The notes: a model not told the origin generated them from the sequence alone. Shown: positions 1 to 64,000, counted from the first letter of the stretch. The stretch: 64,000 nt of DNA from Lenisia limosa (GCA_001655205.1 LPNZ01010610.1:21631-85630); one strand, 5' to 3'. Numbers and translations are program-made.

Positions 1-3000
1 ACCCCAGTAAAAGTCTCCGAATGGTCCTCCTCCTCATTGCACTCAATGGCGACACCTTCCACTTCACCCGGGGCAGCGCTGGAGGGGTTCGGTGTGCTAC
101 ACACCTCGCCCATTTCCCTGCTCTCTTGGAGAGTCTTGGGTGTAAGAGAAAGCAATTCGGTATCTGGCCAAATCTGAGAACTTCAGTCCCCTAGTAACTC
201 TTGTTTAGCCAATTTGAATCATTTTCATGAACTCATAGCTCTCTCCCAGCCTACAGCCTCAGACTCGTGAGTCTCATGATTGGGTGGAATACGGGAGCCC
301 CAGATACGGCCTAAATATGTTCAGTAACCGTAGTCTCCAAAAGTACTTCATTCTTGGACTGAACTGAACAGCATCGATATGGCATTCCTATCTCACCGAT
401 ACCGCAGCAGAACACTTTGGTTTTGAACTTCTTCTCATAGAACAGGACAACAGTGGGGAAGAACGTGATAACAGAGATGTAGTTGCACAAAACAATCATG
501 GCACTGAAGATACCAAAGGTTCGGATTGCGGGAAAACTTGATAACTAAAGACCAGTTACAGGGAGAGAAATTAAGGTGGCATTTAAAAGATTTTTGAAGA
601 ATAATGAGCTGTCTGTGTTAACTTGAAGAACCCCTGCATCAGAATGACTATGTATCAGAATGTAAACAAGAGCGTCCACCGAACCCACGGCGTTGGCAAG
701 GAAAGACGCAATGGTGGTGGCTGAAGTCACCAACATAGCACTGGCAGCATGGCGAAGGGTCCTAAGCGGTCACTGCTGCTCATTGTTTCTTAGGTTGGTT
801 TTTGAAAAGAAAGTAGCATACCAAGACATTCTGGCTTCAGGAGTACCTGAGATAACGGATGGTTGCATGGATGAAATACTCCACGTGTCCTGGGGGTGTG
901 AAAGACAATGGGAAATGCAATCGTCCTTTCATATTCTGAGTTGCTGTGATAAAAGCTCTTCAGTACCATATTAGAGACTCCTCTAATTGCCCCAGCCACA
1001 ACTCACCAATAGAACGAAGACGTCGTCAACACCAATACCAAGAATAATGAAAATGGCCAAGATGTTGAAGACCTAAAACGCTGTCAAAAACTGAACCCGT
1101 TTGGAACATTAATTAGTAGCCCCATTTACTCCAAAATATTGCTGCCAAAAGACAAAGCGATAGAGGAAGTAAGCGGGGAAGAAGCAGAGTACAATCTGGC
1201 CCATAGCCATGAAGGACAGGAACCAAGACCTTGAGTGTGAGAGTTGGAATGCTTGCATGGACGTATTATGTGAAATCAAATAGAAATTAAACCAAATTCA
1301 CAAAAAAAAAATCCATTTCTTTAGAAATAGACGGCCATGCCCACTTGGTCATATAAGCGAGGTAGAAGAGGACGAACACGAACGATCCAATAGCCCAAAG
1401 ACCGTCCGTCATCATTTGCTGCCCAATGAACCGCTCCATCATATTCGCACCGTTGTACCAGACCTGAGGGGGATGATGCTGGATACTACCGAAGGCACCA
1501 GTAAACAAAGAACAAAGTGAATTTACTGAGAACAAAAGCGTAGTCCCCACAGTGAGCCGGCTCGTAGAAGCGTCCTTCAAAGTAGGCTCAAGAGAGTCCC
1601 AAAGGAAGTCAGTGATATCTTCGAGCTGTTGTTCGGGGTCATCTTCGACAGACGTGTAACCTTCAAGAGGGAAGGCAAATTGGAACCTTCAAACGTCAAC
1701 GTGTAACTATTATGCAAACACAAGACATAATTAATAGTCGGGTACCGCACCTGGTTCTAACAGACGCCGCTGTCTCCACACCCGCGCCAAACGAGGCGTC
1801 TGCCATCAGCAGCCTAGGTGGTTAGAAGGATTGTGTCTACTTGATTACGGAATCGTTGTTCCCTTCCCCCCAAATGATAACACTGACCATGTTACCCCGA
1901 AGGCCTACATAGAAAGAGACGCCCGGCCTTCTGGCGTGGGGCTGTAAGGCGAGCCGTTGGCATACTGGTTGAGCTTCAGGTCGCGGAACTCTTTGCTCAA
2001 CTTCATTTGATCCGGGGTGCAACCTCCGTCTGTCACTGTAAGCACTATATACAGGCAAGGCGCTTTCCCATCATTTAAATATTATATGATAGTGTATATT
2101 ACATTGTTTATCTCGAAAATGGAAGAATTGGTCCAGAGCCCTCCCAACCAATATCGCAATCAAGAAGACCGGCAGGTAAGGCGCCGGCCTGTTCACACGT
2201 GTTGTTGCCACTGGGGGTACAAGCCCACACAATGGAGAGAGGCGCGGTACAGGGTGGTAACTCTCCTTTGTTTAGGGCGATCTTCTCATCGTTGGTTACT
2301 GGGTACAGTGATAAACAAGGAAATGGATAGCTCTCTTGGACAGATGATACCCAAAGCTTCTCATTATCGTCCCCTCACAATTGGCATTCAAAACTGAATC
2401 TGGCCAATCAAGAAGACAGTATTTGGAGTAGTCTTCGTGCTGGTAGATCTTCTTTTCGAGTGCAACCATTTCCTAACGTGTGAACATGATCCAGAGCCAG
2501 GCATATCATACCATGAAACAACCCGTCCATACCTCCAAGAACAACCCGTCCATACCTCCAAAAATTGGATTTCAAAGACACTTCCTCCCTCGGTCACATA
2601 AATGAGTTCCAACTCAATATCGGCACCTGTTGGTGTCAAAATGAATATGAATGGTGCTTAGTGTTGAATTTTGGTTATTTCCCCCATCCTTCGAACAACC
2701 CGACAAAAGGGGTCCAATTGAAAAGCAGCAGGACACACCCCCTCCCACCAGTGCTGTCCAGAGACACTGAACGGCGGAGGTCCACTTCACCAGGGGCAGA
2801 TTTGACCTTGGCCACGTCCTAATGGGTCACACAGGCGCCTTAGTGATTTAAAGAGGAATGATAAAACAACAATACAGTTATTGATTAAATATAATAGATC
2901 GTAGGTTGTACATATGTATATGATATTGTATATCGATATGTATATGATATATAACTATGTCTTGAACACAATTGTGCACCTCCCCCACTAGTCCTTCATT

Positions 3001-20909: not shown

Positions 20910-23971
<3,062 letters not shown>

Positions 23972-49706: not shown

Positions 49707-49880
49707 GCTTAGAGGTTCGGATTTACAAATAAGGTGTGCTGAGTGGGTGACAACAAGGGGACAGTTAGTGGATAATAATGGGTGAGGCTAAGAAAGGCTA
49801 AAAGTGTAAGGAAGGGGTGATCATCGATCATGAAACATCAAAATTTCATTTCATAAAACTCGCTTCTTCTCTCCTCAAAC

Positions 49881-51620
49881 ATGACTAAATTGCTTTATCT
49901 GGAAGATACACATAAATTGACCTGCGAGGCCAAGGTGGGTCGCCCGTTGTATTCTTACTGATCCTTACTGGCTTTTATTATATATCATGTATAGGTTGTC
50001 TCTGTGTCTCCCTCACCCGTTGAAGGCGATGGAGAGGGTGTGAAGATCATTGAACTCGATTGCACTGTTCTCTACCCCCAGGTCAGTCGCCAACTTTTCG
50101 CAGAACCTGAAAAATGTGGCCTTTCACTGACCAACAGATGTTTTGTTTTTGTCATTATTATTACTAGAGTGGAAATAAAGGTACAGGAATAAATAGAAAA
50201 AAAGCTATGATTTTTTTGGCCATAAGCCGCCGCTCTAACCTCGAATGTTGGGAGTGAACTGACTTGTGCAATGTTTTACATCTAAGGGTGGCGGACAACC
50301 CTCGGATACCGGGTCAATCACCGCCGATGGGAAGGTAGGCTGCTGTCATACAAAGTATGCTGGTAAATGTTTGGTTGGGCAAGATGGATGAATTAGGGTC
50401 AGTTAAAACCATTTTGTTTTTTTATTAGGCAAATGACGTATAATGACAGAAAATCTTCCGAGTTTACCGCACAGATTTTCAATGTCGAATTTGTTTCAAT
50501 CAAAGAAGGCATTGTATCGCATAAGGGCAAATTTGTTGAAGAAGAGTTTGCTTTAGGTTTGATGGTCAAAGCACTTTTCGCGCTTCTTTTTGGAACACTC
50601 CATTGACCGTTGCAGACTCAGTTGTGACCGTCTCCGTTGATGAGGCCAAACGAATGGAGTTTGCTCGCCTCCATACTGTGGGTCTATTCTGCCCTGTAGT
50701 GCCATAACAGACTTCAACCAATTTATTAATTTATGAGAACTTTCCTTAATCGATTTTGGCGGTTCTACTGTTCTCAGGAACTAAATACCCAGGCTGGCCA
50801 CGTAATCGATGATGCTATGAACACAATCGGCATGACACTGGAGACTGGTGAGGTGTTCACATCTTGGCTCTAGTTGTCTTGTTCATTCTAAACGATGGAA
50901 ATGCCCGTTTTCTATTCTATCCTATAACACACCTCAGGAAAAGGCTACCACTTCCCCTCGGGTCCATATGTTGAATATATTGGCAAGCTTCCCGAAGGGT
51001 GGACCAAAGAGAAGGTTCGCTGATTGACAATGTTTTTTCGGAGGTCATCATATCTAATTATCTGGTTGAACAGCCAAGTCACCCCCCTAGCTTGTTGAGG
51101 CACTGAACGAGGCAGCCGCTACAATTGTGACAGAAGACCGCCCGGTGGACATTCATATAGATTGTGACGAGACCAAGGTGGGAGTTTTCTGCTATTATTG
51201 GACCATTTAGATTTTTCTTCTTTGTTAGTATTGTATAACAGTCAATAAAGGTGTAGGTTGCTGAACTCTGTAATGGTGAAGTACCCCCTTACTGTGTTGG
51301 AAAGGTTCGATTGGGCCGTTTCCGAATACAGCACACTTTCATTTTCAAATAATCATTGTTCTAGAAATCTCGTGTCATCTATATGGGACGACTTGGCTGT
51401 AGGAGGAGGGTAAAAAGACTAACGATTTGAGATGAAAGCATTAACTCCGCAGGTGCATGTGGTGGCACCCATGTCAAATCCCTTGCAGCCCTCGGCAAAC
51501 TTGTCATTACAAAGGTTCGATAAACGCTTTCTTGTTGATAAGATTCTTGGCTCATGCTTTTAGATCAAAACCAAGGGAGGAAAGAATCCTACTGTCCGCG
51601 TTTCATATGTTCTCCAATAA
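49881..51620 (+). CDS. Free-standing Ala-tRNA editing protein AlaX (AlaX-M-like, tRNA_SAD)
   Basis: MTKLLYLEDT; TVLYPQGGGQPSDTG; Zn ligands LHTAGH and CGGTH; KGYHFPSGPYVEY; C-terminal KTKGGKNPTVRVSY. Confidence 0.93.
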
Positions 51621-51781
51621 ACGTCACACCCCACTGTCTGATTTCATTCCTTTCTGCTTATACAATATATACATGTTACAACTTCGTCATTTGCAGTCGC
51701 TGGAATGAGCATTAAAGCTACATCTACATGTGGCCAAGAAAATGGAAAAAACACACAAAAAAAGACAGAGAAACAAGAAGA

Positions 51782-53927
51782 TTATAAGATGCGGATGATC
51801 ATCTGAACAGGAAGGTGGGGTGGGAGAATTTCAACCTAAAATATCAATAAAGACAAGAATAAAAACAGAAATACTAAAAACGAGCCTAACTCTCACGGGA
51901 GAAGAATTGATAACTTCAGCATCCTTCTCCACAGTCTTAATAGTAGTATCAAGATCAACCGAGGTGGAGTGAACATGACCTTCGTCGCGACTATACAATG
52001 AGAAGAGGAGCAAAAAAGACACTGTTCTTCAACCTTTACATATATATATATATCATATATATATTATATGTAATCCCATCACAAAGCCTTAAAAGTAACA
52101 TTAACGTCTAAAAAAGCCTCGTAAACAATACATTGCTGTGAAGCTAGCTAAATAATGGATTAATTATAAGTACACCCTATTACCTGGAATAGAAATCAAC
52201 TTCTTCAAGAGGGTCAGTGCGGTAGACCATACAGCGTGCCTGTAAACTTAGATTCAATAGATCGGCCACATTATGTCAATAGGCCTACCAATAACTATTA
52301 TCATACGGATCCAGTTTAAATCAAAAAAAAAAAAAAAGTCCCAAATATTCCATCACCCCCCCCCCNNNNNNNNNNNNNNNNNNNNNNNNNNNNNNNNNNN
52401 NNNNNNNNNNNNNNNNNNNNNNNNNNNNNNNNNNNNNNNNNNNNNNNNNNNNNNNNNNNNNNNNNNNNNNNNNNNNNNGCTCCTGAAGGGTCATTTTGCA
52501 GAATCCAAAAGAGAAAACTGGGAAAATTGCCAATTTTTTAGAACTCTCAAATCAAATTCAAAACATTACCTAGTCAAAAAGGACAAAATCCAGGGTTATC
52601 AGCCCTCAACCCACCAGTTCTTTTGCTTGTAATTCAAGATCTTGTGGGAATGCTCGCCACCAACATGAGTGTCATTGAGGGTCAGAGGATGGTTATGTGT
52701 CACCTAGAGACTGTAAGACCTACGTACAAAGGACAGACCAAAGCAAATTAGCGAAGACTGCGACTTATATTCAGAGAGGGGGAGGGGTATGTTCGAATGT
52801 TATTTACAGAAATTTAGCGTTCAAAACCCAGAACCTAACCTGATGCTCATGTGCACCAAGAGTGTACTCGTGTGTGTGGGGAGCAGTATCGTACTTCTCA
52901 CCAAGAACGTTGTAGTAGTTGGCTCCCTTGAGGAAGGTGCCGGTCATATCGGGCACGGCCTTCTCAAAGAAAACGCTAACCACGTTAAGTTTAGAAAACC
53001 AACCATTGAAGACTATCTTCAGAAGAAAAAAAAAGCTTATTTGGTATAAAGCAAATATGCAAAATCTTACTCTTTTGTGGACGCATGTTGGAAAAATAAA
53101 TAATCAATATTATTGTAAGGGCCACATTCACACCTGTTTTCGTTGGTCACCACGGAGCCATCGCAAATGGCCCAGCCAGGGGGGGCAGAGTCAGAGGGTT
53201 CAGCTGGCATCCAAGGAATAATCGTGCCAAGAGGGGGTGCTGCAATATCAGAGGGATAATGGTACATTGATGTGTCGGATTCTGAAACTAATCACATGAT
53301 ATGATATTTGCAAATCACATGTGGTTCTATTAATCGGAAGAAATATCCACAATACTCTTTTATATATAGCAATGAGAAATAAAAAATAAGGTTGTATCTG
53401 ACCGAAGTCGTCCACACCATCACGCTATTAGAGATATTGAATTGTAGAATAATATTAATTCACCCAATTTGCCTTACAACTCTGTGCACACAGCTTTCTG
53501 CCTGCCTCCCCAGCATACAGTAAAGCATAGATAAGGTCCCACTTACGAAGATTAAAAATATTAAAATTGCTATTGATATTTTAAATGCACCAGATCCATC
53601 ATCAACAATTGAGCAAGAGGTCCTTCTTAACGCGGGTAACCCATTTTGGTGAGTCACCCAGTTTCATAAGAATAAAGGTCCCAAGAAAACACGGTTGTTA
53701 TAAAAAAAAAAACGATCTTGTGTTTAAAACCTTACCAATTTCAGAGATCTTGACACCTTCCATGACGATGTTACCCTTGACATTGAGATCCTTCTCAACA
53801 ACAAGACTCTCTGAACGTTTAGAGGAGATACTCCCAAAAACCTACCGGTATAGAATGAATTGTCCTTCCTGATCTCCATTGCAACGGCAAAGGAGATATA
53901 GACGAGGAAGAGAAGTATGATCTTCAT
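51782..53927 (-). CDS. Secreted, intron-containing phage tail-collar domain protein
   Basis: Signal peptide MKIILLFLVYISFAVA; VVEKDLNVKGNIVMEGVKISEI; PPLGTIIPWMPAEPSDSAPPGWAICDGSVVTNENSVFFEKAVPDMTGTFLKG; His-rich HTH/HEH/HNH/HSH/HVH motifs; C-terminal MIIRIL*. This is the Collar (PF07484)-type signature. Confidence 0.8.
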
Positions 53928-54123
53928 CTTTCTTTTTTAAACAAGAAGACAGCTCTGCACGTATATGCGTCCTGATCTCAGCCTGATCTTCTTCTTCTTC
54001 TTGCTGTGTGTACTAACTTGGTACTCACTAAGCGCACGAAAAGCACAAAAAGAAAGAAAAAATCGTGAATTTAGAATATATTTTTTTTTCTAGGGTTGCG
54101 ATTGATCATGACTGTCTTATCAA

Positions 54124-54368: not shown

Positions 54369-56376
54369 ATGGACATTTTTGAGAAAGGAGGTAATCATTT
54401 AGCTGGAATGGAGAGTCTCTGTCGGTCAAGTGAGCTACTTGATAGTGCCAGAAAATTGGCCGCCCCTCTAAAGGTGTGCTTCCTCAAAAGAGTCAACTGT
54501 TCAACAGTTAATATACTTGTACATACCCTAAACACAGGAATTCATTTTTAAAATATATGTATAATTGCAATTACAACATTTGTGAATTCTGCAGATTCTT
54601 TTGACAGGTGGCACTGGCTTTATTGGTCGAAATCTCGTAGAAGAACTTGCAAAATGGGGTGACTCAGTAGGCAGCAAAAAGTGTTAGGAAATTTTATCAA
54701 CTCGTTTTCTTTTCTGGCATAATTGCTCAGATTACCATTCTTGATGTAAGGATGCCAACAACCTTATTACCAAAAACCGCCCGATTTGTACAAGGCAGCA
54801 TTAACAGTGGGTGGACTTTCAAAGATCGTAAAGAATGTCATATATCTCTGAATCCTTTCATTCTTCAAACGTGACATTCAAGATTCACGGCTAGTTCAAG
54901 AAGTTGCTTCAGGTCATGATATAATCATTCATGCAGCTTGTTTGGAATGTGAGTCAACATTTAACAAGACAATATAGCTAATGGCGGTTTCAGGTCGTGA
55001 CACCTTTTCAAACCCAGCTCGTTCGGTTGAAGTTGGTTACTGCTTTTGGTTTATGACCATTCAGGTGAACACACAAGGATTGATCACAGTGCTAGATGTT
55101 GCTAATGTGTTAGACATTCGCTTCATCTACATCTCCAGAGTTAGCCTATTGGTTCTTGAGTAACATCAACGTGTCTTGTATTTTGTGTATTCACCCTTTA
55201 GTATTCCCAAGGCCCCTTTTGGCTTCACCCCTTTCGTATCACTGAGCAAGCTGGCGAGGATTTGTGCCGCATGTATGCAAAAGTCTGTAGGATTCGGGGC
55301 CTTCAATTAGCATGCTGTGAATTGGACGTGTATTTACCATTCCCAGGAATGGGGTCTTGACATCAAAATAATTCGACCTTTCAACGTCTATGGGCCAGGA
55401 CAAGGTCACAATGAAAGCTATGTTAACACTCCGCCAGTCATGATCATGCAGGTTTGTATGTATAAAAGAGAATGAGAAAATAATATGGATGTGCAGTTTG
55501 TGTTCAGCGCTGACCGTCTAGGCCCTAACAGGGAAGGATATTGTGGTTCATGGAACTGGAAAGCAATTTACAGATCTGGTTTACATCGGTAAGCAGTGAC
55601 ATTGCATTGATGTACGAAAACTCACGAGGGATAGTCACTGTGTTTTATCCTTCCTGACATCATAGATGATGTGACTGCTGCAATTGCTACGGTTACTCAT
55701 GAGCCAAACACACGTGGAATTGACGAAGTTGTCGAAATTGGTTCAGGTGAGTCATTTATTTCATCGACTTTCTTATGACCGCCTCTTCACTTCTGACCTT
55801 TAGGCTTTCGGATATGGTCCAGCAAAAAAGAGACTGTTATCGTTTTTAGGTCACGCAACTTCTGTAAGACAACTGGCGGAGATAATCTGTAGAATTTCTG
55901 AAGGGTATGCTTCATGCTCTTTTTCTCAAATTTCTCATTATCCCTTCCACAGTACTGGACACGTGGTGACTGATGTGGAGATTGATGGAGGGCGTTGTGC
56001 CCCTCGGGTCTGTGCTGACCTGACAAACCTTCACCAAAGGTACTTATTCAGACCATGTAAGCCAACCTGGGTTGTGGCGTTACAATATAGCCACCACTTT
56101 GGAGCAGGGTATTACCAAGTGCGTGGACGACATGAAAGCGTTCCTTAAAGTCAGACAGGTGCGAGGTTTAGTTCTGAATGCCATTTTGTCAACTGTTTTA
56201 CAAAACAGGTTGAAGCGCCAGCCAAAGTCAAGCTACGCCCTCCCCCTGTTACTGTGGGTATTGTGTTCATTTCATTAGTTTATGATCTGATACTATCTTG
56301 TAAATTTATTCTCCAGAAGCACATGCCAACCATTTCTGAGAACATTGACCGCTGCTTCGCTGAACTTGACTTGTAG
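54369..56376 (+). CDS. Extended SDR (NAD-dependent epimerase/dehydratase fold) with a degenerate catalytic motif
   Basis: ILLTGGTGFIG; ITILDV; IIIHAA; VNTQGLITVLD; HPFRITEQAGEDLCRMYAK; IIRPFNVYGPGQ; VHGTGKQFTDLVYIDDV; TTLEQGI. Confidence 0.88.
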
Positions 56377-56572
56377 TGGACCTGATCAAAGTTGTATGTA
56401 TTTTTGAACTTTAAAAGTGAAAGTGTTATTGAGTAACAATTATTTTGTTTATCTTGAACATATATAGTATATAATATATGAAATATACTATATAAAAAGA
56501 AATTGTAGACTCTCCCACGTGCAATAAAATAGAAAGAAATAATAAATAATGTGAAAAATAAAAAAGGAACAA

Positions 56573-59127
56573 CTACACCACAAGGTCTTGACTTGCCAAA
56601 TATGCCATGTAGGCCTTGTAGTCCAAGCGGCTTTGATTCGGGTTCAGAACCTGACGAATAAAACTGAATAGTAAGTGGACGTGAAATACAATCTTAACAT
56701 AAACAGTTTTTTTTAAAAAATTAAACATCATTACCCCCCCTCCCCCACGATCCGTCTTGAATATAAATACAACGGTCAGCATAGCACTCCAGATCAGGGT
56801 TATGCGTCACCTGGATGGTGAAATAATGTGGATCGCAGTAAATAGAAAATGTTAATGATTGTTCCACCCTTCCGAAATACTGCCCAATAGCCGGCCATAT
56901 CTCACCATAATACAGGTGGTTCCAATCCCATTGTTGATGCTTAATAGCAGATCCATAATTTCAATGGTGTTGAGAGTGTCGAGATCTCCGCTGGAAAATG
57001 AGGATACAGATAGGTATGATACATATCATATCATACACTATAAACTTTGGAAGCAGAAGAGCTACGACGACGGGGGTAGCAATGAAACAGTTACCAATGA
57101 AGTAGCTTAACGGTACGATATCAGACAATAACTCAGTTGCCTGTTGTTATGCTTATGTATGCATAGGTGTGCTTCTTTTGATGCAGTATAACACTGCTAA
57201 GGATTTGGTTCACTGGGAATAATATTATGGTTATATCCAATGCAGTGACATCGTAAGGTTACGTAACTTCAGGATGCTATTTATAAAACAGAAGAATTTG
57301 ACAAATGACTGCTCTTTTACAAGCTTTCCTTCGATAAATGAAGAAATGTAGACTAGTTGCAATCCCTGAATGACATTGACACCCACGTTGGTTCGTCAAG
57401 AAGTAGCAGATCGGGGTCATTCGCCAAAGCTCGAGCAATTGTCCTGTATAGTCACAAAATTAAGGTCAACAATACCCCTGGTCAAAGGAAAGCACTCATC
57501 CTCAAACACTCGCTGCTGTTCACCCCCGGAAAGTTCTGAAGGTAAATGGTTCACTCTGTCTTGGAGGCCGACACCTAAAATAGAATGAGACCGATAGCTA
57601 TTATTTATTATACATTAAGCATGGATTGCTTTATCAAGAGAGTACAAGCTAGAAATCAAAGTCGGAGTTAAACCCGCATCGCGTACTTTTGAGGAGTTCT
57701 AACGCCTTCTCCTTGCGCTGTTTCTCGTTAAGTTGACCAGTCAAGGTCATTGGGAGCTAAGACTCTTTAAAAAAAAAATACACTGATTTAGTCTGGGAGG
57801 GTGCTGAAAAAGAGAATTTGATTCCCCATAGGAAGAACTACATGTAACTATAATATCACAGAGACTTGTAACTACTACTATATCATATAGTCATATTATA
57901 CATACCATTTCATAATATGATATCCATAATACATGAAAAAACTACATACCTCCACGTTCTCAAACGCCGACATTGTAGCAAGGAGGTTGAATGTTTGGAA
58001 CACAAAACCTGAAAGATGAGTTTGAGATGAATATCACGATGTTCAATATCGATATATGAAGATAGCTTCAAATTGAAAAAGCAAGCCGTTGAATCGAGTT
58101 TGCATTATATCAAAATCACAAGAACATTGTAGTTTATTTACAGATTCCAGTTTACCAATCTTATGAAGCCGTAGATCGGCCAAATGGTCATCAGAACACT
58201 CGCTGTTCACAAGTGAGCCAAAAAGTTCTAAAATAATAACAACGCATAATCAGGAGACCAATGAGAAGCAAATGGGGAAAGATCTATTTATCCAATGTTG
58301 ATATTACTGTACGACTTACCAAGTTTTATAAAATTTTCAAAATGAGTCCATTTCAAAAATGTTGGATTTTTTCTAACACATCATTGAAATCACACTATTA
58401 TTGGAGTGTAACAAGGATCTCAACCACCAACCGATTTCACCCTCACTTGGCCTGTCTAAAGTGCCCAGCGCGTGCAAAAGGGTGCTTTTCCCTCCTCCTG
58501 AGGGCCCCCTTGATTCATAAAAAATGGCACTAATCGTAAAATCCAACAGCATCATCAAAAAAATCAGGAAAAGAGGGAAAATCCAGTCCCCAGTACAGTT
58601 CATTTCAATAACTAGTCTGGTCTTACTTATAGAATCCAGAATACCCATCCAGTTCCCCTGGAATGCAGAAATGCCCAAACGCCTCACCTCAACATCACGA
58701 ATTCTCCCCTACAAGTTGAGAAACAATGACAATATAGTATTCTAAGGAGCAGGTCAAAATTGAGTCTTAAGATGAAAAACCCTGAAAAAAAAAGCCAAAA
58801 CAACTTGCACAACCAAAAAGAGAAATCTTAAAGAATATATTACTCATTCGCCACGATATGACACTACCCCCCCGAGCTGAGGCCCACTTTCGAACGGGAA
58901 AGAACTCGCTGTTATCATCCACATGGATATCTGCGAGGGCCACAATCTCATCCTGTCGTCCTGCCAAGGCAAACCCTGTGAAGAAGTTACATACTGAAAG
59001 AGAACCGGATTCAAAATGGAAAACCAAAAAGTGAGAAAACAATGCGAGACATACTCTTTGAGAGATGCTTTATTTTCACAACTGCTTCGCCAAGTGGCTT
59101 CCTGAACTCACTAAGCATCACCTCCAT
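56573..59127 (-). CDS. Stand-alone ABC ATPase of the LolD/MacB/FtsE-like family (Dictyostelium abcH-type); start approximate
   Basis: ALADIHVDDNSEFFPVRK; Walker A GPSGGGKSTLLHALGTLDRPSEG; GFVFQTFNLLATMSAFENVE; ELSGGEQQRV; Walker B LLLLDEPT; VTHNPDLECYADR. No TM domain. Confidence 0.92.
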
Positions 59128-63664: not shown

Positions 63665-64000
63665 TCCAGCGGTGACTACTGTATAATCAGAGTCTTACTT
63701 CAACTTTGAATACAGCAAAATGATGGGGGGAATTAAGATTATATTATGTAATCCAATATATCTATAATCGTGATGGTGGACAGCTTCTGTTAGATAACAC
63801 CTATTTTATCTCATCTCTATAGATGAATTGAAATATCCTTATGGTAAACCGACATCGGTATGTGATTCCAAATTGTAGTAAAAGGTATCACTACCAATCT
63901 TACATCTTACGGCTGTCTTACGGTTTCAAAGTTTCGTAAAACATAGTTGAGCAGGAGAGCGTACCTAAGTTGCTGGTGGCTTGTCCATAGGGGGGGGGGG

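Follow-up and report, generated by a model that had tools for sequence, protein, structure and literature searches.

To our knowledge, the sole studied precedent of fibre hardware in eukaryotes is the S74 chaperone domain of MYRF/MrfA. The closest described systems of the collar type are the T4 proteins gp37 (2XGF) and gp12 (1OCY, 1PDI). In the gp37 needle, stem and tip are inserted into the collar, with seven irons bound by pairs of His (PMC6957217); this needle binds LPS and OmpC, and the axial metals of gp37-type fibres are structural (PMC6957217). Small gp37-like collar-needle proteins are also found in the protist world, in virophages: collar trimers of DSLV2 were assayed on Synechococcus (bacterial LPS; PMC12724248), and collar genes are listed in virophages OLV18/19 (PMC3671162); the accessible part of PMC3417536 makes no mention of a collar domain. 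Among bacteria-eating cells, Bdellovibrio uses secreted, phage-like trimeric fibres (MATs) on its prey (PMC10769870). Finally, Table 1 of PMC9530463 contains a Plasmodiophora brassicae protein, Pb4_109755 / CEO97090.1, of 191 aa with a signal peptide and a Phage Tail Collar annotation. A secreted collar protein in a eukaryote is thus not wholly unprecedented, since one further eukaryote at least bears this pair of annotations; in the accessible part of that paper the protein fills one row in a table of candidate effectors and is not treated as a fibre, and its likeness to the protein described below is one of annotation. Beyond this row, our search of mostly open-access literature found no paper discussing a spliced or secreted eukaryotic collar fibre; supplements of genome papers may list such proteins.

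We describe here a transcribed and spliced host gene with a conserved collar, conserved His motifs and a full-length eukaryotic homologue. It lies in the window, i.e. the whole stretch of DNA analysed (64,000 nt). With gp12 and gp37 its product shares the collar, the inserted His-motif stem, the closing C-terminal strand and, as far as its homologue is concerned, a predicted trimeric state. Unlike theirs, the gene is nuclear, has eight introns and a signal peptide, and is associated with no virion or baseplate; the collar is divergent, scoring under the Pfam cut-off in exon 3 and in the homologue, the tip is unrelated as far as tested, and five HxH motifs are visible as against seven iron sites in gp37. 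The virophage fibres differ in being virion proteins, encoded by three tandem genes beside a minor capsid gene (PMC12724248, PMC3671162), a context not seen here. The MATs, as signal-peptide-bearing, phage-fibre-like trimers of a bacteria-eating cell, are a functional analogue (PMC10769870). However, a beta-rich domain that is conserved and about 130 aa long follows their signal peptide, where our protein has about 36 residues, and they bear S74 or other tips (PMC10769870; the word "collar" is absent from the main text). A Pfam scan found no S74 domain in the homologue, and no MAT structure appeared among the chains listed in the structural comparison described below. The protein belongs to the gp12/gp37 structural family; it forms no part of a virion or of a tailocin or eCIS locus, and it is not a MAT.

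Gene structure and genomic setting

The coding span lies on the minus strand, from an ATG at 53927 to a stop codon ending at 51782. An 804-nt contig from a polyA RNA run (X2, record 9) crosses the whole gene and joins its exons, with 7 listed joints, which give nine coding exons and eight coding introns when set against the window (Table 1). Both the ends of the gene and the figure of about eight introns proposed in the first-pass annotation are thereby borne out, and so is its expression, for which RNA had been named as the check. The RNA evidence is a single contig of one study, two public runs of which cover the stretch; the library is a polyA metatranscriptome and the sample a mixed community. 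Since positions 54624-56615 have no RNA cover, the library is not simply DNA.

Table 1. Exons and other features of the collar gene, in window coordinates
Feature	Position	Strand	Description and evidence
exon 1	53846..53927	-	start codon, then the signal peptide (about residues 1-16) and the first part of the mature protein; RNA joint 53810/53846, hydropathy
exon 2	53736..53810	-	short strand-rich stalk ahead of the collar; RNA; common to Lenisia P0096 (E 1.2e-5)
intron 2	53240..53735	-	496 nt; joint 53239/53736; very high-copy repeat at about 53360-53520
exon 3	53134..53239	-	first half of collar domain; RNA, PF07484, PHROG 4591, ESM Atlas
exon 4	52840..52975	-	second half of collar; HxH motifs 1 and 2 (residues 121, 130); RNA
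exon 5	52615..52703	-	needle stem; HxH motifs 3 and 4 (residues 136, 151); RNA
exon 6	52366..52482 (73 nt, begins 52482, mostly in N run 52366-52478)	-	part of needle tip; sequence unreadable in the window
exon 7	52184..52239	-	end of tip; RNA
exon 8	51897..51990	-	return strand; HxH motif 5 (residue 211); RNA
exon 9	51782..51835	-	C-terminal PP motif, collar-completing strand, stop codon; RNA
5' UTR intron, 25 nt	54004..54028	-	likely, inferred

The spliced model is 765 nt long and in frame; it encodes 254 aa with no internal stop in the visible part, 23 residues being unreadable. The seven fully visible introns (35, 496, 158, 136, 132, 193 and 61 nt) are all of the GT..AG type, and the donor of the eighth falls within an assembly gap. 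At the joint 52240/52614 the RNA carries 71 extra letters, which belong to an exon concealed in an N run. Because these letters are unplaced, and because a DNA contig has 73 letters where the window shows 113 N, we placed a hidden exon 6 of 73 nt at this point; it preserves the reading frame of the joined model. Two micro-exons considered in intron 2 were ruled out, as the RNA jumps 53240-53735 in one step. A ninth intron is likely in the 5' UTR: RNA record 10 ceases to match at 54003, right on an AG, while 30 of its letters remain unmatched, and a GT donor is found 25 nt upstream. The window contains 17 N runs in all, many of them abutting G or C homopolymers in introns, and these can conceal exons as was the case for exon 6.

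A 13,024-nt DNA contig spans exons 3-9 and continues into the convergent neighbour gene; exons 1-2 and the region upstream of them are on a second one. The two are interrupted within the high-copy repeat of intron 2, a break that the RNA contig bridges. Summed DNA depth over this repeat reached 92,102 and 79,763 in two bins, compared to about 35 alongside; 2,693 DNA records match the stretch, and a further copy lies at 63723-63827 (72% over 112 nt). Intron 2 showed no clear terminal inverted repeat. An ORF of 205 aa crossing this intron (P0003, 53064-53681, minus strand, TGA read as Trp) is a gene-calling artefact.

The window is eukaryotic. Sampled ORFs of the window match WDR3, APC10, RWD, a family-14 glycosyl hydrolase and an ABC transporter, and GC is flat (0.36-0.47). 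The convergent neighbour (49874-51638, plus strand), which by its motifs we take to be an alanyl-tRNA-editing (AlaX-like) protein, encodes 250 aa in 12 exons, with 11 GT..AG introns in an RNA contig of its own, and its transcript ends about 90 nt from that of the fibre gene. Coding GC is 0.48 in both genes, and GC3 is 0.55 in the collar gene and 0.46 in the neighbour. This spliced neighbour is direct evidence of the host context. When the 80 flanking ORFs of at least 58 aa (44-64 kb) were scanned, none had a phage structural PHROG match, a scan weakened by the shortness of exons; two matched an ABC transporter family, one gave a weak Pfam nodavirus match (17.4 bits for a cut-off of 30) overlapping a repeat, and no baseplate, tail, capsid, packaging or integrase gene was seen beside the collar gene. 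No paralogue of the latter is present within the 64-kb window. The beta-amylase (family-14 glycosyl hydrolase) gene at 21000-22500, minus strand, is found here in a eukaryote that does not look like a plant.

Collar domains are typical of viruses and the sample is a mixed community, which would suit an endogenous viral insertion, a contaminating sequence or a pseudogene in decay. Eight introns are spliced, however, and the frame is intact; the neighbours on the contig are host genes, GC is flat, and a eukaryotic homologue exists that is diverged and full length. These observations largely refute this explanation, which we regard as extremely improbable. The earlier proposal of a host gene sitting between host genes is the one that the spliced neighbour and the flanking ORFs sustain.

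Protein plan, eukaryotic homologue and predicted trimer

Residues 1-16 have the look of a signal peptide, judged from their pattern by eye and from a mean hydropathy of 3.4 over residues 3-11. As no second hydrophobic stretch is present in the readable spliced protein, no membrane anchor is visible. After the signal peptide come about 36 residues of alternating, strand-like character, then the collar (about residues 55-107) and a stem with HxH at 121, 130, 136 and 151. A tip of 57 residues separates the fourth HxH from the fifth, which is carried by the return strand at 211 and followed by the C-terminal PP motif and strand. All the tail-collar motifs quoted in the first-pass annotation, together with its HxH pairs and terminal strand, are present in the spliced model, and the signal peptide it had called is conserved in the homologue described below.

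An intron cuts the collar domain, of which exon 3 encodes the first half. Exon 3 alone matched PF07484 with E 1.8e-4 and 21.9 bits, below the 24-bit cut-off; the full homologue, at 22.0 bits, falls short of it as well. Exon 3 also matched the PHROG short-tail-fibre family 4591 (E 2.4e-4) and, in the ESM Atlas, 28 of its 30 matches were Collar clusters, the best at 0.93. The remaining exons had no match in Pfam or PHROG, and tblastn of exon 3 against phages gave matches at E 0.2 or worse only, the annotated ones being nearly all tail fibres. Profiles were also applied to the spliced model: one built from 12 collar segments of viral contigs scored it at 48.6 bits over residues 55-136 (best of 300 shuffles, 2.0), and one of 14 bacterial-type segments at 67.2 bits (best of 300 shuffles, 4.7). 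The collar HMM match put forward as a check on the annotation was thus obtained, under the Pfam cut-off for exon 3 and well above shuffles with the viral-only profile.

A profile made of two phage proteins and two exons was then run on 1.84 billion representatives and gave 4,537 matches at E 0.001 or better. P0096, found among the 150 listed, stood out when these were rescored with the spliced model (125 bits, a signal peptide and the same stalk); of 29 of the 150 whose source was looked up, one came from EukProt, so that eukaryotes are thinly sampled here. The P0096 cluster consists of two EukProt entries labelled Lenisia limosa, a breviate, and its 268-aa isoform P0155 (EP01086_P015847) is full length. 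The C-terminal 20 residues of P0096 presumably represent sequencing-adapter read-through, P0155 having the true C-terminus. P0155 aligned end to end with the window protein (BLASTP, 155 bits, E 3e-51), 87 of the 231 readable positions (38%) being identical. Residues 135-254, which lay outside the search profile, matched P0155 on their own at 34.9 bits. In a 37-row tree, P0155 is sister to the window gene at 99/98. No annotation of P0155 or paper on it was found, and it is known from a transcriptome entry only; as the culture contained bacteria, it could be a contaminant, but its sister position to a spliced gene speaks against this. The window's own spliced protein was not found in the protein collection: a word-index search with P0096 returned only itself (66 candidates), exon 4 had no match, and exon 3 returned P0003 alone. 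As the collection apparently lacks it, P0155 would be either the orthologue from a different species or a paralogue from the same one.

All five HxH are in register among the window protein, P0155 and P0118, a metagenome protein described in the last section, and two of them are invariant in the 6 aligned rows. Five such motifs in a small secreted protein might also serve extracellular scavenging or storage of iron or zinc rather than a needle core. We consider this very unlikely, because the motifs are in register with those of fibre homologues and lie in the predicted trimer interface, where axial metals are structural (PMC6957217).

Fold and trimer predictions were made on P0155 and not on the window's protein. 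A first fold with 6 rows had a pLDDT of 44.7; with 42 rows, the monomer reached 64.5, with values of 94-96 for the collar, 88 for the block of the closing strand (257-261) and near 40 for the tip (about 160-213), which is unplaced in the trimer model. When the model was compared with 48,161 chains, the nine best were all collar-type fibre or baseplate proteins, namely gp12 (Z 6.8, 6.4 and 5.4), the gp37 tip (6.3), the Photorhabdus eCIS fibre (5.7), the fibres of cyanophage A-1(L) and Pa223, Bizionia C24 and gp10, while unrelated chains scored 2.5 or less. Residues 55..264 of the model superposed on 1OCY 339..527 with Z 6.8 and an rmsd of 3.2 over 82 aligned residues, and the model on 2XGF with Z 6.3 and 6.5 over 105. 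These Z values are middling (all below 8), but the predicted fold retrieves a coherent top set, a modest argument for a fold of this kind. A six-row family profile matched gp12 with E 3.4e-5, in an alignment that takes in the stretch just before the gp12 collar, to which the exon 2 stalk aligns.

As a homotrimer, P0155 residues 20-264 scored 0.80, the best of 3 controls scoring 0.00, and the runs agreed on at least 88% of contacts with a pLDDT of at least 71. Among solved same-chain pairs 21 of 30 attained the mark, among single chains 0 of 23; on eukaryotes these figures were 17 of 29 against 0 of 30, with only 1 of 7 among those lacking an older solved relative. The pass may stem from likeness to solved phage fibres, and as similar complexes are already solved, the score shows likeness and not binding. 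Stalk, collar and His positions all lie in the interface of the predicted trimer. The trimeric, gp12-like architecture anticipated by the first-pass annotation therefore holds, as a prediction, for the homologue, from the trimer score and the superposition on 1OCY, whereas Foldseek on the PDB, which had been proposed for this purpose, gave no match at E 0.001 or better with either of two models.

Possible functions of the needle

By analogy with the fibres described above, the protein may be a secreted, likely metal-cored trimeric needle of bacterial-fibre origin, the variable tip of which would bind bacteria for prey capture or for holding partners; in our judgement the chances for and against this reading, which we prefer, are evenly balanced. 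Such a gene would be an ancient acquisition from a collar fibre that a bacterium secreted. The signal peptide would be cleaved after about residue 16 and the protein secreted through the ER, whereupon three chains would intertwine via stalk and collar, each HxH triplet holding one metal ion on the needle axis. The loop of about 57 residues between HxH 4 and 5 would be the tip that binds the bacterial surface. As no anchor is visible, tethering needs a partner: lacking a membrane or GPI anchor, the needle would either dock on a surface partner by its short N-terminal stalk or remain soluble and tag bacteria.

The same features could be read as those of a structural part, i.e. a secreted trimeric needle that has no bacterial ligand and serves as an extrusome filament or as a spine or hair in the coat of cell or cyst. 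The lack of an anchor and a strand-rich stalk that might polymerise or dock agree with such a role, and five HxH kept while the tip diverges would fit selection on the scaffold alone. On the other hand, the tip loop is similar in length in both eukaryotic proteins and in P0118, the Lenisia tip weakly resembles a myxobacterial tip (E 0.015 among 1,513 sequences), and the solved relatives are receptor-binding fibres; we find a purely structural role rather unlikely.

Another possibility, unlikely in our opinion, is a secreted lectin-like adhesin for non-bacterial targets. It might hold to polysaccharide of sediments or biofilms or to other protists, or be a decoy against the attachment of giant viruses or virophages. 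The nearest relatives, which would come from bacteria that contact other bacteria, speak against it. Plasmodiophora brassicae, for its part, is not known to graze bacteria. That a secreted collar protein is listed in this plant parasite (PMC9530463, Table 1) is in favour of such targets, as are the presence of collar fibres in giant viruses and virophages and the free swapping of fibre tips among targets (PMC10769870).

Returning to the binding of bacteria, breviates carry attached Arcobacteraceae and Desulfobacterota cells, and contact dependence and adhesion machinery are named as future work on this symbiosis (PMC12453579). This ecology applies to Lenisia and only perhaps to the organism of the window. 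It is conceivable, if doubtful, that breviate-like anaerobic, bacteria-eating flagellates turned a phage-type receptor-binding needle from a predatory or sulfate-reducing bacterium into a secreted recognition protein that picks and holds prey or hydrogen-consuming surface symbionts. If this were true, it would provide a first molecular handle on partner choice in these symbioses, and a tail fibre would have become a pattern-recognition receptor of eukaryotes. The protein being a small, soluble, expressible gp37-like needle with all metal motifs, recognition of bacteria by a protist becomes testable by standard binding assays.

Bacterial relatives and the donor of the gene

A profile built from the two eukaryotic proteins gave its best other scores with P0118 (89.6 bits), two Corallococcus proteins (62.2 and 61.7), P0078 (59.0) and a Desulfocarbo protein (58.2), whereas the best viral contig scored only 40.5 bits. 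P0118 is a 343-aa protein on a metagenome contig of 1,953 nt, and aligns over 54-253 with the same five HxH; both P0118 and P0078, which are on short metagenome contigs, would be bacterial in origin. A search with P0118 brought up 3 loci among 307 candidates, in Desulfocarbo indianensis and Corallococcus exercitus. The Desulfocarbo protein, of 221 aa, resembles the window protein in having a signal peptide, a short stalk, a collar, HxH and the same C-terminal PP motif; its gene is a lone one among housekeeping genes (amidase, deacetylase, symporter). In Corallococcus exercitus, three tandem collar-needle genes encoding about 610 aa each follow an S74-bearing gene (L015:56-6329). None of the three has a Pfam match at E 0.01, and this collar subfamily therefore escapes Pfam. 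Its signature (WW.P ... CDGS ... SP..G) was also present in Myxococcota and Desulfobacterota genomes G031, G157 and G235 and in P0118 and P0078. Most bacterial relatives carry longer N-terminal domains, and the subfamily is rare and patchy: in two phylum samples of 151 genomes each, 4 genomes carried it in either sample, counting the seed genome. Scanning viral contigs with the bacterial subfamily gave 49 loci among 259 candidates, and with P0155 none of 8 candidates was confirmed; in JGI metagenomes, P0155 gave one distant locus among 91 candidates.

The main tree was made from 37 rows hand-picked among 130 segments, with 86 columns. The eukaryotic pair grouped with bacterial-type rows, with support of only 83/77 and 81/76, unstarred. 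Union of the pair with the L001/P0005 phage group was rejected (p-AU 0.015), and union with three phage rows (L018, L021) was not (p-AU 0.25), both groups having been chosen after the tree was seen. A quick tree of 95 rows placed the pair in a group of 15 rows without any row from a viral contig (SH-aLRT 89).

We conclude, from sequence comparison, that the donor was probably a bacterial secreted collar fibre of the Myxococcota/Desulfobacterota type rather than a phage, with moderate support, because the best non-eukaryotic relatives are mostly bacterial-type fibres, several of which already have a signal peptide. Whichever the donor, ultimate ancestry is common with phage fibres. The idea of a domesticated phage protein that gained its signal peptide in the eukaryote, as first annotated, thus keeps its host-gene half and makes its phage donor the less likely one. 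A gene coming straight from a phage, a giant virus or a virophage, the signal peptide being gained in the eukaryote, is an account of origin only, which we think rather improbable. In its favour are the union with the three phage rows, which was not rejected, 36 viral structural matches at E 0.001 or better and, as no more than a lead, the top Atlas cluster for P0155, a viral one composed mostly of Nucleocytoviricota and found at 0.88. The low scores of viral rows (40.5 bits at most, against 58-90 for bacterial-type rows), the unconfirmed candidates on viral contigs and the rejected L001/P0005 union weigh on the other side, and the plan of a signal peptide followed by a stalk exists already in bacterial relatives. 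The gene adds a well-supported case of prokaryotic fibre hardware turned into an intron-rich eukaryotic gene.

Three tandem collar genes were also found in a Bacilli MAG (L016:27-2484), two of them encoding about 230 aa with signal-peptide-like starts; judging from these starts, they are a second, separate case of putatively secreted bacterial collar fibres.
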